A DNA stretch of 38,859 bases. Origin: a virus (lineage: Duplodnaviria; Heunggongvirae; Uroviricota; Caudoviricetes). The stretch lies in the IMG/VR virus record IMGVR_UViG_2563366883_000017, one strand, 5' to 3'. Positions 2,794-20,463 of the stretch are shown here, piece by piece; positions within the stretch are counted from its first letter, which is position 1; each line of letters starts with the position of its first letter. The translations under genes and the position numbers were made by a program. Under the pieces are notes generated by a model. That model was given only the letters and a program-made list of their open reading frames with translations, did not search any database and was not told the origin of the DNA.

Positions 2794-5386
2794 TTGCATA
2801 TTCCTTAGCCCAGCGGGGCAGTGATAACGTCTTAATAGCTGGCCATTCATCGGTATTGAGGCAGTCAGCCAGGGTTCGCAGATTGCGGTGATATTCCAGC
2901 TGACCTGCCAGTTTTGCTTCTTCGCCCATCATGAAAATTTCAACCGGATAACGTCCGCATTCAATAGTTGTGCTGGCAACCAGAAAAACGAAAGTTGGCT
3001 GCACTCCAAACTGTGCTTCATAACCGTCACTGTAGAATGCATCCTGAACGTGATAGCGGTAGTCGTAATAAGCGGTTTTGAATCGTTGAATATCCGCCGT
3101 AGTTTTCACGTCCATGATCCAGTGAAATTCAGGGATAATTTTGTCCGGACGGCACCGACACAAAATTGCTGTTTCAGGATCTTCCCAGTAAATTGATGAT
3201 TCAGCGTGTCCGGCGCTTTCAACAAGCCATTGCCCCAGCGGCAAAGCCATAACGCTCTGATACATGAGTTCAATTTTCCGGCCTTCTTCGGCAGTGATAA
3301 CCGTTTTTCCTGTGCTTGCGCATTCCCTCAGAAACGCTTTCTCTTCTTCTTTTCCGGAGTTTGTCCGGCGGTTAAATTCAGGTGCTACGATAAAGCGGTT
3401 ACTGAATTCTTCCGGCTCAAGTACCCGGCAGTGGAAAGCGGTTCCTAAATCGAGCGTTTTTGTCTTTGTGGTGTCCACGGGGGCATTTTTACGCCACAAA
3501 TACAGTGCCGGAGTATCAGCAATGTCATCGAGCTGAGACTTACTGACACCGGGACCCGCGTGGTAATTCTCATTCGAAATTCCGTAATAAATACCTGGCT
3601 CTATGTCTTCTACGATTACGGGATCTGCGACTTCGCCAGTTTCATCACTGCAATCGCGATGCGGATCGCTGCCAGCATTCTCATTGTGCGGATGTTCAGC
3701 GCCTTCCATTTCCTCCGGATCATTTTCCTTAGCTTCAACCTGACTCTCTTCATCGAATGTTTCCTGGTATGTTGCGTCGCCCATCACCGCACCACAGTCA
3801 GGGCAGTTATCCCCGCCAGTCTGGCCGCAGGCATTGCAGGCTATTTCCGGTTCCTGTTGCACTACTGGCTCAGGTTGATTCATATCCGGGCTGGTTTTTT
3901 CCGTTTCTGGCTGGTTCTGGTACACACAATCGCGAGTCTGGATCCCCTTTACCCATTTCGGATCGTTCGGGTCGCTAATTCCGTCAACAAATTCACCACG
4001 TGATGCAGCAAGCAATTTATCGGCATCGACAGGATTTTTTGATGGAATGTTTTTCCGGGCTTCATGGAGTTCTGCCCGCAGTTCCTGATATTTCGCATCA
4101 ACAGAATTTACCTGTGACTGAGCATCCAGCGGCTGCGTGTCCTGATGATGTTCAGTTGCGTCCGGTTCCATTGTTTCAGCCTCTCCCTGTTCAACTGCCG
4201 TTGTTCCAGATGGTTGCGGTTTTTCTTCATCATCCTGTTTTCCTTCTTCTGTTACTCGCTGCGGCATCGGGGCAGAGGAGCGACCGCAGGCAATATCCAC
4301 GATTTCCGGATCAGGGTTGGCATGATCGGTTTCAGTCAGTACTTTGTTCAGATATTCAGTGACGTGCGCGGGGATGACCTCGATCCCAATTGGTGCTTCT
4401 TTTACGGACGCAACCACGATGGCGCGGGAATAATCCAGCCCGCCAGGCATGGTGATGAATTTGTCGCGGAAAACAGAAAAGGGCGGTTTATTTTCAGCGA
4501 TAATTTCCTCAATGCGTTTAGCGTGTGCCGGATGAAGGTTATAGATGTCCAGATCCATTGAACGGGCCAGTACGCCAGTGGCTACGTCCCGCGCCAGTGA
4601 CGTCAGATCGTGTACGAAACCTTCGCCGCGATCGGTGAGGTTTCCGCCGCCAGCATTAGCACCGGAAGCCGTGCGAGTGATGTGTGAAACACGATTACCC
4701 TTCATCCACTCTTTTGTCAGCAGTCCTCGATCGGTGTAGTCAGCGTTCAGGTATGCTTCGAAAAAAGCAGTTATCAGTCCCAGGTTTGAATTACCAGGAT
4801 TAGGGAAAACTTTGTCAGTGTCACGAACCAGTTTGTGGAGTTCGCGAATTTCCAGCGGGTCGAGCAGGCTGGTTTTGTGGGAAACAGCCAGGGCAGTAAC
4901 AGCCGGTAGTTCTTCAGCCCGAGCAATGTGTAATGCCTGGAGTCCGTCGCGTGAAACGTGCGTTACCGGTTTTTCGCTGCCGTGTTGAGCAAGCCAACGA
5001 ATGGGCAGTTCCTGGCCAGAAATTGGGAGTAGCATATTCTCCTCAATCTCAGTCATGTCTTCGCCGTTGACGTTGGTATTGCCTTGATAGTGAGCGTTGT
5101 CTGGTGCTGCTCCCGGTTTTAGTTCCCATGTCATGGAGTCTTTGCTGAGTTGATAGCGTTCACTCCAGGTAAAATCGATCTCACCTTCAGCGGGCAGGTC
5201 ATTAACGACAGGAAAATTCGTGGCAACAGCTTTAAAATAGCTGCTCAGTTTTTTACCTGACTTAACGATCAGGTAGTCCAGAGTGGCACAGGTCGATTCA
5301 AAATCGTTGCTTGCCCACAGGACGACGTCAGGTTCACCGGATGATTTTTTCGCTTTCCGTAACAGGAAGAGTGGTTTTGTGCTCAT
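2786..5386 (-). CDS. recE: Exonuclease VIII RecE, 866 aa
   Basis: 866-aa ORF directly upstream of recT on the same strand; length and context match Rac RecE. Confidence 0.9.
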
Positions 5387-5487: not shown

Positions 5488-5763
5488 TCAGATTTCACCT
5501 TTTAATTTCATTGCAATTAGAGTTGCCAGAAATTCGGCTTTTTTTTCTGCGGGCAGATTCTTTCCGATATGCACCAGGCACATTTTTTTGACACCTTCAT
5601 CAAGTGTTTTTACGTTGCCTGATGGACCATCGATATCAACCACAGTGAATGGGGTTTCTTTATTTTCTGTTTTAATTACGTAGCCAATGCGCTTTCCTTC
5701 CAGATTCACCTCGTGAACAATGTCATCGGTAGTTACAACAGTGGCTTCATAATTGGTAATCAT
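5488..5763 (-). CDS. racC: RacC-like small protein, 91 aa
   Basis: ORF MITNYEATVVTTDDIVHEVNLEGKR...; position upstream of recE as in Rac. Confidence 0.75.
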   Translation of the reverse strand: MITNYEATVVTTDDIVHEVNLEGKRIGYVIKTENKETPFTVVDIDGPSGNVKTLDEGVKKMCLVHIGKNLPAEKKAEFLATLIAMKLKGEI

Positions 5764-5837
5764 GTTTTTCTCCTTAATTAAGGTTGAGCGAATACCTGCC
5801 ATTTCTGGCATAAATTCAGTTTCGAATAGTCAATTAA

Positions 5838-6008
5838 TTAAAGTTCATGTGCCATCTGGTCTTTTTCGGCACAAGCTTCACTGCAATATTTTCTCGGTTC
5901 GTCTTTTGATAAAATCCCGTGCATGAAGTGAAGCATTCTTTCAATAGCTTTGCTTTCTTCAACGTCTTTTTTGCAAAGGTGGTAAGCACATTTTATTTTC
6001 TTAGTCAT
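5838..6008 (-). CDS. ydaE: YdaE-like Cys-rich small protein, 56 aa
   Basis: Hand-translated from ATG at 6006-6008 on the minus strand: [56 protein letters not shown]; start overlaps the kilR stop. Confidence 0.7.
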   Translation of the reverse strand: MTKKIKCAYHLCKKDVEESKAIERMLHFMHGILSKDEPRKYCSEACAEKDQMAHEL

Positions 6009-6229
6009 CACCATGACTCCGCCTTTACAGGTAAACCATCACGACCGAGGAAGACTTTAATCATGCGGTCAGTAATGCATGTTTTTGTGGTCAGGTTACG
6101 AATATATAGTTTTCGCTTTTTAATATTGTTTGCCGAGGCAATATATGTCCGGCCTTCATGAAGAACATAATCGCCAGGAGTCACACACTGACGTGGTATT
6201 TCATCAGTTCCGAAGTGATGTGCAATCAT
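6008..6229 (-). CDS. kilR: KilR-like cell-division inhibitor, 73 aa
   Basis: [30 protein letters not shown]...; matches recalled Rac KilR; lies in the leftward early operon. Confidence 0.8.
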
Positions 6230-18430: not shown

Positions 18431-18962
18431 GGGCTGGTTTATTGTATGCCAAATGATTATTAAAAAGGTTGTGTTAATAACAAAATCCGAAATAATATGC
18501 CTGCATATTTTTATCTTGCTTATATTCTGCATATTGTGCATAGCAGGCTCATCCCTGCAATCAAAACTGTATGATGAGTATTTTTTGTTTTCCTTTTTTC
18601 CAGTCATCTGATGATGACCTGCTTCTTTTTAATCCGGATCGACATCAGTTTTTTAAGATAATTCCTGCGAGTTATATGCATAAATGCCACAAACTCCGCA
18701 TTTTATGTGGTTGGGAGTTGCCGGGCGCGCAGTGAGTTTGCTAAGAAAACTCCTGCATGGTGAATCCCCCTGTGCGGTGGGGTGATACCATTAACCTTTT
18801 CTGTCGCCGACAGGTATCACGAACATTTTGTTCACCGGGAGGCACCCGGCACCATGCACTTCAATAGATTCTCTCCACATTATGGATATTCTTTCAGAAT
18901 ATCCCACGCAGACTTTGTGTAAATGTTAACAAATGTGCGTTTTATTTGATCTGATTCGCTGT

Positions 18963-18992
18963 TTGAGCGTCCAAAACAACGGTATATATAAT
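18963..18992 (+). promoter_or_regulatory. Sigma70-like promoter upstream of the first TolA-like lipoprotein gene
   Basis: TTGAGC (18963-18968), 18-bp spacer, TATAAT (18987-18992); GAGGA SD before ATG 19022. Confidence 0.45.
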
Positions 18993-19021
18993 CCTTTACT
19001 ATATGACATATGTGAGGAAAA

Positions 19022-19450
19022 ATGGGTTTTCGTAGCGCATCAATTCTTACGTTGATTATTAGTGGGATTATTATCGGGTGCACTGATGCTGTATCGACAA
19101 ATTATCATGACCGTACATCATATTACTCCGATAAAGCAATAGAGACACAGTATGTGAGTTCATCTGAACGTACTTCTGATGTTAGTGAGGATATCCGTCT
19201 GTATGCCCATCAAATCAAGAGCGCCATCGAAAAACAGTTCGGGGATGCGAGTAAGTATTCAGGAAAAGAGTGTACACTGAGAATGCATATGGCCCCGAAT
19301 GGCCTTCTACTGGAGGTTAAAAGAGAAAGTGGAGACCTCGATTTATGTCGTGAAGCGATGAATGCGATAAAGAATGCTGATATACCTGCCCCCCCTTCGC
19401 CGGAAGTATATAAAGTATTTCAAAATGGGGTGCTGGATTTTAAACCCTGA
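19022..19450 (+). CDS. Lipoprotein with TolA C-terminal (domain III)-like domain, 142 aa
   Basis: N-terminal signal peptide with lipobox IIGC; C-terminal region YAHQIKSAIEKQFGDASKYSGKECTLRMHMAPNGLLLEVKRESGDLDLCREAMNAIKNADIPAPPSPEVYKVFQNGVLDFKP closely parallels the recalled E. coli TolA C-terminus (…CTLRIKLAPDGMLLDIKPEGGDPALCQAALAAAKLAKIPKPPSQAVYEVFKNAPLDFKP). Confidence 0.7.
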   Translation: MGFRSASILTLIISGIIIGCTDAVSTNYHDRTSYYSDKAIETQYVSSSERTSDVSEDIRLYAHQIKSAIEKQFGDASKYSGKECTLRMHMAPNGLLLEVKRESGDLDLCREAMNAIKNADIPAPPSPEVYKVFQNGVLDFKP

Positions 19451-19600
19451 TATTTATTGTTTTGTAATAAACGGTTTCGGCTTAGGTTTGTTCTGACACA
19501 GCTACGGCACTGAGCTAAATTTAGCGGATAGTCAGCTCTGAGCCAGTGGCGGACGTAACAACTACTATTGCTGAGATTTTAATGGATTGAGGAGCAAGAA

Positions 19601-19996
19601 GTGGGATTAAAGAAAATCGTTATGTTGACTTTTTGGGTCGGTTTTGTTGCGGGATGCACACCTTTACACCCTTCAGATTGCCACAAAACTACTGCTACAG
19701 GTAGTTGCAGTTCAGGACGCTGGGATGATCAGGATGAATGGGGGGCGCAAGCGCGGGGAATCAGAGCTGCAATTAATGCCAAACTTGATGAGCCGCATAA
19801 CTGGAAAGGGAAAAAATGCAGGTTGCATATGGAATTCTCTCAGGATGGCACGGCGTTAAAAATATCTACCAGTAACGGTGATAAAGCCTATTGCGAAGCG
19901 ATAAAGTCCGCAGCTCATAAAGCCAAATTTCCGGCCTTCAACAATCCGGAAGTCTACAGAGATTTTCAGAAATCTGGCTTTGACATGCGAGGTTAG
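19601..19996 (+). CDS. Second, more divergent TolA domain-III-like lipoprotein, 131 aa
   Basis: GTG start with GAGGAG upstream; signal peptide plus lipobox VAGC; C-terminal half keeps the two-Cys pattern and the PEVY-x-x-FQ motif of the first paralog (KKCRLHMEFSQDGTALKISTSNGDKAYCEAIKSAAHKAKFPAFNNPEVYRDFQKSGFD). Confidence 0.6.
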   Translation: MGLKKIVMLTFWVGFVAGCTPLHPSDCHKTTATGSCSSGRWDDQDEWGAQARGIRAAINAKLDEPHNWKGKKCRLHMEFSQDGTALKISTSNGDKAYCEAIKSAAHKAKFPAFNNPEVYRDFQKSGFDMRG

Positions 19997-20122
19997 CTCT
20001 TCAATTACTATATCTCATTCATAGCAAACTGACAGATTTGATGATGTTCTATATACGAAACCTGTGATGTCAAGTCTGAGCTAATACAAATAAACATAAT
20101 ATCAGAGAAATACATTTTATTA

Positions 20123-20146
20123 GCTCGCTACGGCGAGCTTTTTATA
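20123..20146 (+). terminator. Intrinsic terminator after the lipoprotein pair
   Basis: AGCTCGC-tacg-GCGAGCT followed by TTTTAT. Confidence 0.6.
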
Positions 20147-20247
20147 TTGCATCGTCTCCAGCATATATATCAATTAAGGCTCTGATTGATGTGTCTGAAA
20201 GCCTACACATAATAACTATGCCATCCGTTCCGTGCGGAGGTGAGGCT

Positions 20248-20463
20248 ATGAAATCCATGGACAAAATTTCAACAGGCATTGCCTACGGCACCTCCGCAGG
20301 CAGTGCTGGCTACTGGTTTTTACAGTTGCTCGATAGAGTAACTCCGTCACAGTGGGCTGCAATCGGTGTGCTGGGTAGTCTGGTATTTGGCCTGCTGACG
20401 TACCTGACAAACCTTTATTTCAAGATTAAAGAAGATAAGCGCAAGGCTGCGAGAGGTGAATAA
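20248..20463 (+). CDS. Class II holin (phage 21 S-like pinholin), 71 aa with dual start (MKSMDK)
   Basis: [71 protein letters not shown]; two TM segments and a charged C-terminus; stop overlaps the endolysin start (TAATG). Confidence 0.85.

Follow-up and report, generated by a model that had tools for sequence, protein, structure and literature searches.

Adjacent prophage genes of Escherichia coli encode predicted lipoproteins with a TolA domain III, tentative decoys for Tol-dependent invaders

Results

Two adjacent prophage genes encode predicted lipoproteins

The stretch of DNA analysed here in full (hereafter the window) comprises the 38,859 nucleotides (nt) of IMG/VR virus record IMGVR_UViG_2563366883_000017. 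It is a Rac-type lambdoid Escherichia coli prophage, a 100%-identical relative of which has intR, xisR, recET, kilR, sieB, a lysis cassette and trkG. Our subject is a pair of adjacent genes on its plus strand, here called A and B, each of which is predicted to encode a small lipoprotein whose C-terminal part corresponds to domain III of TolA (TolA-III). The pair lies, as a first-pass annotation made from the sequence alone had placed it, between Q and the holin: a Q-like antiterminator gene (DUF1133, PHROG 753) is found at 17435-17977, 5′ of gene A, and on the other side a P21-type holin gene ends at 20463, to be followed by genes for an endolysin (lysozyme) and Rz/Rz1, and then by trkG.

Gene A (19022-19450, + strand) is an intact open reading frame (ORF) for a prelipoprotein of 142 amino acids (aa), with a Shine-Dalgarno sequence, GAGG, 4 nt 5′ of its start. 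Its N-terminus, MGFRSASILTLIISGIIIG, contains a signal peptide and the lipobox IIG/C20 (19022-19081, + strand; pattern match), with predicted cleavage before C20, which is followed by TD. Beyond the putative lipidation site, the protein consists of a tether covering aa 21-53 (19082-19180, + strand), disordered in the AlphaFold2 model, and of the TolA-III domain at aa 54-142 (19181-19447, + strand), as placed by profile, alignment and model.

Gene B (19601-19996, + strand) encodes a 131-aa prelipoprotein, starting with a GTG at 19601 that is preceded, at a spacing of 6 nt, by a perfect Shine-Dalgarno match, AGGAG (19590-19594, + strand). In its N-terminus, MGLKKIVMLTFWVGFVAG, cleavage is predicted before C19 of the lipobox VAG/C19 (Cys codon 19655-19657, + strand; pattern match), and this cysteine is followed by TP. 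A C-x8-C loop that is conserved in the family occupies aa 27-36 (19679-19708, + strand), and the TolA-III domain, again placed by profile, alignment and model, occupies aa 45-131 (19733-19993, + strand). RefSeq begins gene B 21 nt late, at the internal ATG 19622 (L002 20723-21097, in the identical relative), whereby the charged n-region of the signal peptide is lost. This n-region, KKIV, is kept in all homologues and is included only from the GTG start; because of its conservation and of the AGGAG upstream, we favour GTG 19601 over ATG 19622, and the RefSeq start is probably wrong.

A and B carry a TolA domain III on a predicted lipoprotein tether

Formal comparison bore out the resemblance to TolA. 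Both proteins matched the Pfam model of the TolA C-terminal domain (PF06519; cut-off 25), A with 82.6 bits (E = 2.4e-23) and B with 54.6 bits (E = 1.3e-14), and in both cases nearly all of the 96 positions of the model were covered. In a search of solved structures, aa 55-142 of A aligned without gaps to residues 334-421 of E. coli TolA (E = 5e-28), and aa 50-129 of B matched TolA structures with E = 5e-9. Over the 88 columns of TolA 334-421, A shares 59% of its residues with the E. coli protein, and B 31%. The two TolA cysteines, C363 and C388, are both present in A and in B, the terminal VY..F...LDFKP of TolA is retained in A, and the order of secondary-structure elements in both proteins is that of TolA-III, a fold of three helices and a three-stranded sheet. 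AlphaFold2 modelled the domain with a pLDDT above 90 in A and in B and left aa 1-50 of A and aa 1-39 of B disordered. When these predicted folds were searched with Foldseek, the best match was in each case E. coli TolA-III: 2x9a_B for A (rmsd 0.6 Å over 88 residues) and 3qdp for B (rmsd 1.1 Å).

The first-pass annotation had described two adjacent genes with signal peptides and the lipoboxes IIGC and VAGC, the first with a C-terminus that parallels E. coli TolA down to its two cysteines and the VY..F..DFKP end, the second more divergent with the same cysteine pattern. Both ORFs, the alignments and the predicted folds agree with this description.

Neither protein is TolA proper, as by the full-length models both lack the transmembrane domain I and the helical domain II. 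NF007065, which describes full-length TolA, gave 107.8 bits for A and 53.7 bits for B, both under its cut-off of 213, and aligned through positions 293-386 of 387 only; the cut-off of TIGR02794 (tolA) was passed by A, through the C-terminal quarter of the model only. No full-length TolA closer to A than that of E. coli itself was found, a word-index search returning the lipoprotein family only. The lipobox, scored by pattern match, was present in all 120 full-length B-family matches and in 31 of the 37 A-family matches of 105-175 aa, the remaining six being truncated or mis-started calls. Residue +2 is Thr in A and B and Ala or Ser in their homologues, and never Asp (at least 150 homologues). 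Taken together, profiles, alignments and models indicate that A and B carry a complete TolA domain III on a lipoprotein tether.

RefSeq takes a different view of gene A, which its pipeline (PGAP) labels an incomplete tolA pseudogene, 'missing N-terminus', with only the last 260 nt covered (L002 20291-20551). The label implies that such genes are decaying, functionless fragments of tolA, and the match of A to TIGR02794, confined to one quarter of the model, speaks in its favour. We consider this explanation extremely improbable. Gene A is a complete ORF of 142 codons with a Shine-Dalgarno sequence, a signal peptide and a lipobox, features that no tolA fragment would have; its architecture is kept in variants of as low as 66% identity, with a dN/dS of 0.26-0.39 against variants (domain 0.25, tether 0.49), and it is 100% identical in hundreds of genomes. 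The intact ORF with its own ribosome-binding site, the lipobox and purifying selection contradict the pseudogene call, and together with this conservation they all but rule it out for gene A. The label needs correcting whichever function holds. For gene B, dN/dS is 0.08-0.13, and purifying selection on both (0.08-0.39) argues that both genes are functional.

A retains the ligand contacts of TolA that B has largely lost

Ligands add strands on opposite sides of TolA-III: the contact strand for colicin A is formed by residues 375-380, and the face for g3p, colicin N (ColN) and TolB has been assigned by Li et al. (PMC3365938). Among the colicin A contacts, L375, L376, K379 and K396 are identical in A, and the replacements D377E, I378V and L392M are conservative. 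The retained LDFKP strand of A would, we infer, be the other edge of the sheet, on the g3p/ColN/TolB face. In B, by alignment, all three cation-pi lysines are replaced, and most of both sheet edges and most of the colicin A contacts are lost.

B-family proteins carry a tether motif, CxPLHPSxCHKTTATGSCSSGRWDDQDEWG, that TolA is without. Its C-x8-C part (CHKTTATGSC), just past the lipid-anchor cysteine, was present in 118 of 120 B-family proteins and recurs in distant B relatives at 37-50% identity; it is absent from the A family. We posit that it is probably a disulfide loop with a function of its own. Because the edge residues are replaced and the C-x8-C loop is family-specific, the ligand range of B probably differs from that of A, which would explain why the two genes are kept side by side.

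The same divergence bears on an alternative explanation, in which the fold shared by TolA-III and the TonB C-terminus acts as a general-purpose device for capturing strands, here those of a different ligand. The ligand could be the periplasmic part of a receptor or transporter in the outer membrane, such that the receptor of another phage is blocked in the manner of the phage lipoproteins Cor and Llp, or a component of the conjugation apparatus. TonB and TolA, which are fold relatives, both act by strand augmentation (PMC7066135), and A gave a weak match to the TonB_2 model. The alternative is most plausible for B, given its mere 31% identity to TolA-III, its two diverged sheet edges, its own tether motif and the location of B-type genes in the relaxase operon of I-complex plasmids described below. 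A, at 59% identity, keeps the known contact strands, so that the known TolA ligands are the simplest expectation for it, and no candidate gene for an alternative ligand adjoined members of the family in the neighbourhoods compared. For the pair as a whole, we regard a different ligand as unlikely.

A and B are separate cassettes

A and B are homologous (29% identical, E = 2e-18), and the first-pass annotation had called them a tandem pair of paralogs. Adjacent homologues they are, but their boundaries are independent and do not fit a recent tandem duplication. Homology to prophages that carry A only spans 18645-19451 and ends precisely with the gene A stop codon, whereas homology to plasmids covers exactly 19571-19999, that is, gene B with its ribosome-binding site. 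As these breakpoints fall at cassette ends, we infer that A and B were acquired independently, as separate cassettes. An origin of the pair by duplication in place was considered and is ruled out by the separate homology boundaries.

In other prophages, A-type genes of 91% and 66% identity stand alone behind three unrelated types of Q. There, the A-type gene occupies the slot that holds stx in Stx phages, with tRNA genes on its upstream side and nanS-p, DUF826 and the holin gene downstream. Phage mEp460_ev081 has the A+B module as well, there preceded by another Q gene. The earlier proposal of a moron-like unit is in keeping with this discrete presence or absence among related phages, with the breakpoints at cassette ends and with the different Q genes.

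Directly 5′ of gene A lies an STnc100-type RNA element (Rfam RF02076; 18725-18911, + strand; 86.6 bits against a gathering score of 47, E = 4e-18), which travels with gene A inside the shared stretch. In the A-only relatives, the Q-to-holin region has three or four STnc100 copies, on both sides of gene A (L019 and L020 at 4704-4877, 5599-5803 and 5854-6061; L019 also at 2589-2802). The element may be a marker of cassette exchange in this slot, or may promote it.

The family is common on prophages, plasmids and chromosomes

Of 5426 complete E. coli genomes, 774 contain the exact A+B pair (100% identity) and 888 (~16%) contain A-type DNA. All but two of the 952 places with A-type DNA were chromosomal (950/952), and A-type genes are essentially confined to prophages. 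B-type genes, at 87-88% nucleotide identity, occur on ~600 plasmids, among them pO157, where the gene lies downstream of ssb-psiB-psiA-hok. Of the I-complex conjugative plasmids, all four that were inspected have the B-type gene in the same orientation as the relaxase gene nikB and 68 nt downstream of it (L004 3444-3875; L023, L024 and L025 3965-4396; plasmids typed IncK2/Z, IncI-gamma/K1 and IncI1/B/O), and from this arrangement the B-type gene resembles a third member of the nikAB operon at oriT. TolA-III lipoproteins of a third family are carried by ~310 plasmids, mostly of Klebsiella. The 144-aa protein of this family has the lipobox ITAC/SN and is 43% identical to E. coli TolA-III; on the one plasmid inspected, K. 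pneumoniae pMR0617ctx (L013 4217-5246), a conjugative IncFIB/IncFII plasmid, the gene directly follows one for a thioredoxin-fold protein.

Orphan B-type genes are also present on the chromosomes of 32 species representatives of Enterobacterales. In the chromosomal neighbourhoods compared, we found neither conserved synteny nor a constant partner gene, the neighbours being heterogeneous. Some of these genes have defence-like neighbours: in Serratia marcescens, the B-type gene stands beside GmrSD and a HEPN protein (L009 6957-8736), and in Leclercia adecarboxylata beside DUF1493 and an AbiEii-like AAA ATPase (L127 3476-6326); most of the other chromosomal neighbourhoods consist of ordinary metabolic genes.

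An exhaustive HMMER search yielded 130 representative clusters, and a lipobox in 53 of the 68 short full-length representatives shows that the combination of a lipoprotein signal with TolA-III is widespread. Among 50,697 deposited phage genomes searched by tblastn with A and B, mEp460_ev081 was the sole match, and in a scan of IMG/VR the best 80 loci were all near-identical copies in E. coli prophages. A and B are full-length members of PHROG 5772, 'unknown function' (E = 1.6e-62 and 6.7e-65), and the RefSeq product name is 'cell envelope integrity TolA C-terminal domain-containing protein'. A comparison of uropathogenic E. coli (UPEC) lists a variable 1,355-bp phage region with 'TolA protein, hypothetical protein' (PMC6854850). 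The gene family is thus common, selected and uncharacterised, and not a rarity.

Transcription signals and the late-operon position

Gene A is preceded by a sigma-70 promoter-like site, TTGAGC-18-TATAAT (18963-18992, + strand), which has 10 of 12 consensus matches and lies 30 nt 5′ of the gene. Between gene B and the holin gene, an intrinsic-terminator-like hairpin with a U-run is found at 20122-20147 (hairpin 20122-20139, + strand). The hairpin has a 7-bp stem with 5 GC pairs and a 4-nt loop, followed by UUUUUAUAUU; at -13 kcal/mol (z = -3.3 against shuffled sequences), it is a good candidate for an intrinsic terminator. Of the promoter-like element and terminator that the first-pass annotation had assigned to the unit as its own, candidates for both are present and the hairpin stands out from shuffles, but promoter-like matches are not clearly enriched in the region (11, against 6.5 +/- 2.3 in shuffles). 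The promoter-like site is kept, with TGTAAT as its -10 element, in the 91%-identical L019 and L020, and not in the 66% variants. Q-modified polymerase is expected to read through such terminators during lambdoid late transcription.

A further promoter-like sequence, AAGACA-18-TATAAT, is followed ~30 nt later by a hairpin and U-run (18405-18424); the whole element (18348-18432, + strand) lies ~370 nt 3′ of the Q-like gene and may be a late promoter with a first terminator. No tRNA genes were found in the window; relatives carry tRNAs in the Q-to-holin region, and their Q-to-S slot also holds an AraC-type regulator, nanS-p and PmrD.

Elsewhere in the window, between the replication genes and the nin region, three consecutive ORFs of 363, 415 and 227 aa without a Pfam match (11779-14781, + strand) match the PADLOC candidate defence system PDLC03004/5/6, 'Hp1/Hp2/Hp3' (E = 5e-41, 1e-10 and 4e-11). 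A close relative has a block of BCCT transporter, LysR and MFS genes in their place.

The location of gene A raises a second alternative, the leading one, namely that A and B sabotage or tune the Tol-Pal system of the host. By competing for the N-terminus of TolB, and possibly for Pal, they would leave TolB-Pal undissociated, with a looser or vesicle-shedding outer membrane as the consequence. If expressed from the late transcript under Q control, they would help to release the phage or its cargo; weak expression from plasmids and chromosomes would serve to adjust vesiculation or the envelope. Gene A does lie in the late operon, directly 5′ of the holin, endolysin and spanin genes, in the slot that A-type genes invariably occupy. 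However, the Q-to-S slot is a general cargo site, for tRNAs, an AraC-type regulator, nanS-p and PmrD among others, and since it carries such varied cargo, the position does not imply a role in lysis; the spanins, moreover, already handle the outer membrane. A is also a near-faithful copy of TolA-III that includes the C-terminal strand on the face assigned by Li et al. to TolB, ColN and g3p, yet TolB binds TolA-III weakly, at 40-250 µM (PMC7066135). In the CP-933O prophage, a gene called TolA-type, which may belong to the same family as A and B, was up 32-fold after ciprofloxacin (PMC11125564). The leakiness reportedly caused by soluble periplasmic TolA-III would also fit this alternative. Finally, B-type genes are a fixed part of plasmid backbones and chromosomes, settings in which a chronically damaged envelope would be a costly burden, and are nevertheless under strong purifying selection. 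On balance, we think perturbation of Tol-Pal a rather unlikely function; if true, the pair would represent a novel type of accessory for phage lysis or for vesiculation.

Discussion

Group A colicins, related bacteriocins and filamentous phages, among the last the helper and display phages of the laboratory, all use TolA domain III as their gateway. We tentatively favour the explanation, possible though short of probable, that A and B are outer-membrane-tethered copies of TolA-III, uncoupled from the Tol motor, which intercept Tol-dependent invaders. Under the established +2 rule for lipoprotein sorting, a +2 residue that is never Asp predicts Lol-dependent sorting to the outer membrane, and with Thr at this position A and B would both be lipidated and delivered there. 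The TolA-III domain would then hang just beneath the outer membrane on a tether of 25-33 residues, held where the translocation domains of colicins emerge and where the N1 domain of the filamentous-phage protein pIII (pIII-N1) arrives. As domains I and II of TolA are lacking, no coupling to the TolQR motor is expected, and without a transmembrane helix the tethered domain could not be energised, so that binding to it would be a dead end. Translocation domains of group A colicins and related bacteriocins, as well as pIII-N1, would be held unproductively if they met this copy first, and the outcome would be tolerance or exclusion. A, as a close mimic of E. coli TolA-III, should share its ligands.

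Competition of this kind has been produced in the laboratory. In E. coli, soluble periplasmic TolA-III reportedly led to colicin tolerance, together with leakiness, in work that Levengood-Freyermuth and colleagues are said to have published in J Bacteriol in 1993. Periplasmic pIII-N1 sequesters TolA, with resistance to colicin A and a 4-log drop in phage uptake as the result (PMC10424213). The affinity of colicin A for TolA-III is ~1.3 µM (PMC3365938), that of TolB for TolA 40-250 µM (PMC7066135); with parasite ligands at about micromolar strength and TolB so much weaker, a decoy in moderate amount could block invaders with little harm to Tol-Pal.

The distribution of the genes is consistent with such a role. 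A-type and B-type genes each occur singly, the latter without a fixed partner, the pattern expected of a self-sufficient protective factor, and B-type and third-family genes are associated with conjugative plasmids, which encode pili. Conjugative pili are the receptors for TolA-dependent filamentous phages, of which If1 and Ff then use TolA-III (PDB 2X9A, 1TOL). That plasmids which build pili carry these genes in their backbones fits the idea of a decoy. In its widest form, lipid-anchored TolA-III copies would amount to a widespread and unrecognised envelope immunity of mobile elements, acting as co-receptor decoys against filamentous phages and group A bacteriocins: conjugative plasmids (IncI complex, F-like, pO157) would use them to offset vulnerability to the phages of their own pili, and prophages would stack two variants of different ligand range. 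To this general proposition we give less credence, and consider it doubtful.

Several points weigh against a decoy function. At E <= 1, neither A nor B nor the form from Klebsiella plasmids matched any model of PADLOC-DB 2.0. A, whose gene was seen nowhere but in the late operon, in the Q-to-holin interval, may be made mainly during lytic growth, when protection of the host would be of little value, and the candidate signal for expression in the lysogen is a promoter consensus match only. A faithful mimic of TolA-III would also bind TolB and could damage the envelope. B, for its part, is without most of the colicin A contacts and has its three cation-pi lysines replaced, and it is 65-89% identical across genera that differ in their own TolA; this conservation where host TolA proteins differ suggests that its ligand is perhaps neither a colicin nor a phage protein. 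Lastly, we found no functional study of any family member in the full-text literature searched, which gave passing mentions only and leaves subscription journals mostly uncovered, so one may exist. The first-pass annotation had been aware of no described prophage TolA-III lipoprotein decoy: within that literature this stands for the function, whilst the domain itself was already named in RefSeq and grouped in PHROG 5772.

If A and B do act as decoys, about one in six E. coli genomes, pO157 and a group of resistance plasmids carry a hidden tolerance factor, with consequences for bacteriocin- and phage-based therapeutics and for the ecology of colicin warfare. Co-receptor mimicry would join the known routes by which mobile elements protect their hosts, and the genes would provide natural, selected dominant-negative probes of Tol-Pal, with two or three specificities.

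The closest known counterpart of A and B is domain III of E. coli TolA itself (PF06519; PDB 1S62, 1TOL, 2X9A, 3QDP/3QDR), with which they share the domain, the fold and the disulfide cysteines. Unlike TolA, they have a lipoprotein signal and a short disordered tether, and are encoded on mobile elements outside the tol-pal operon. The laboratory constructs, soluble TolA-III or pIII-N1 in the periplasm, likewise present a free TolA-III or ligand that competes with the contact between TolA and its ligands, whereas A and B are natural and selected, lipid-anchored at what is predicted to be the outer membrane, and diverged into at least three families.

Among phage proteins, Cor (phi80, N15 and mEp phages) and Llp (T5) are small outer-membrane lipoproteins that block the entry of competitors and colicins at the envelope. 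We detected no sequence relationship of A or B to Cor or Llp, the families matched being the TolA C-terminal domain and an unannotated PHROG. Cor and Llp inactivate the receptor FhuA, whereas A and B would instead imitate a periplasmic co-receptor. As cargo, the pair resembles the Q-to-S morons of lambdoid phages, stxAB and nanS-p, which occupy the same slot, after Q and tRNA genes or STnc100 and before the holin gene, and are likewise exchanged as cassettes. In contrast to these, the product of A and B is neither a toxin nor an esterase, but an envelope protein that imitates one of the host.

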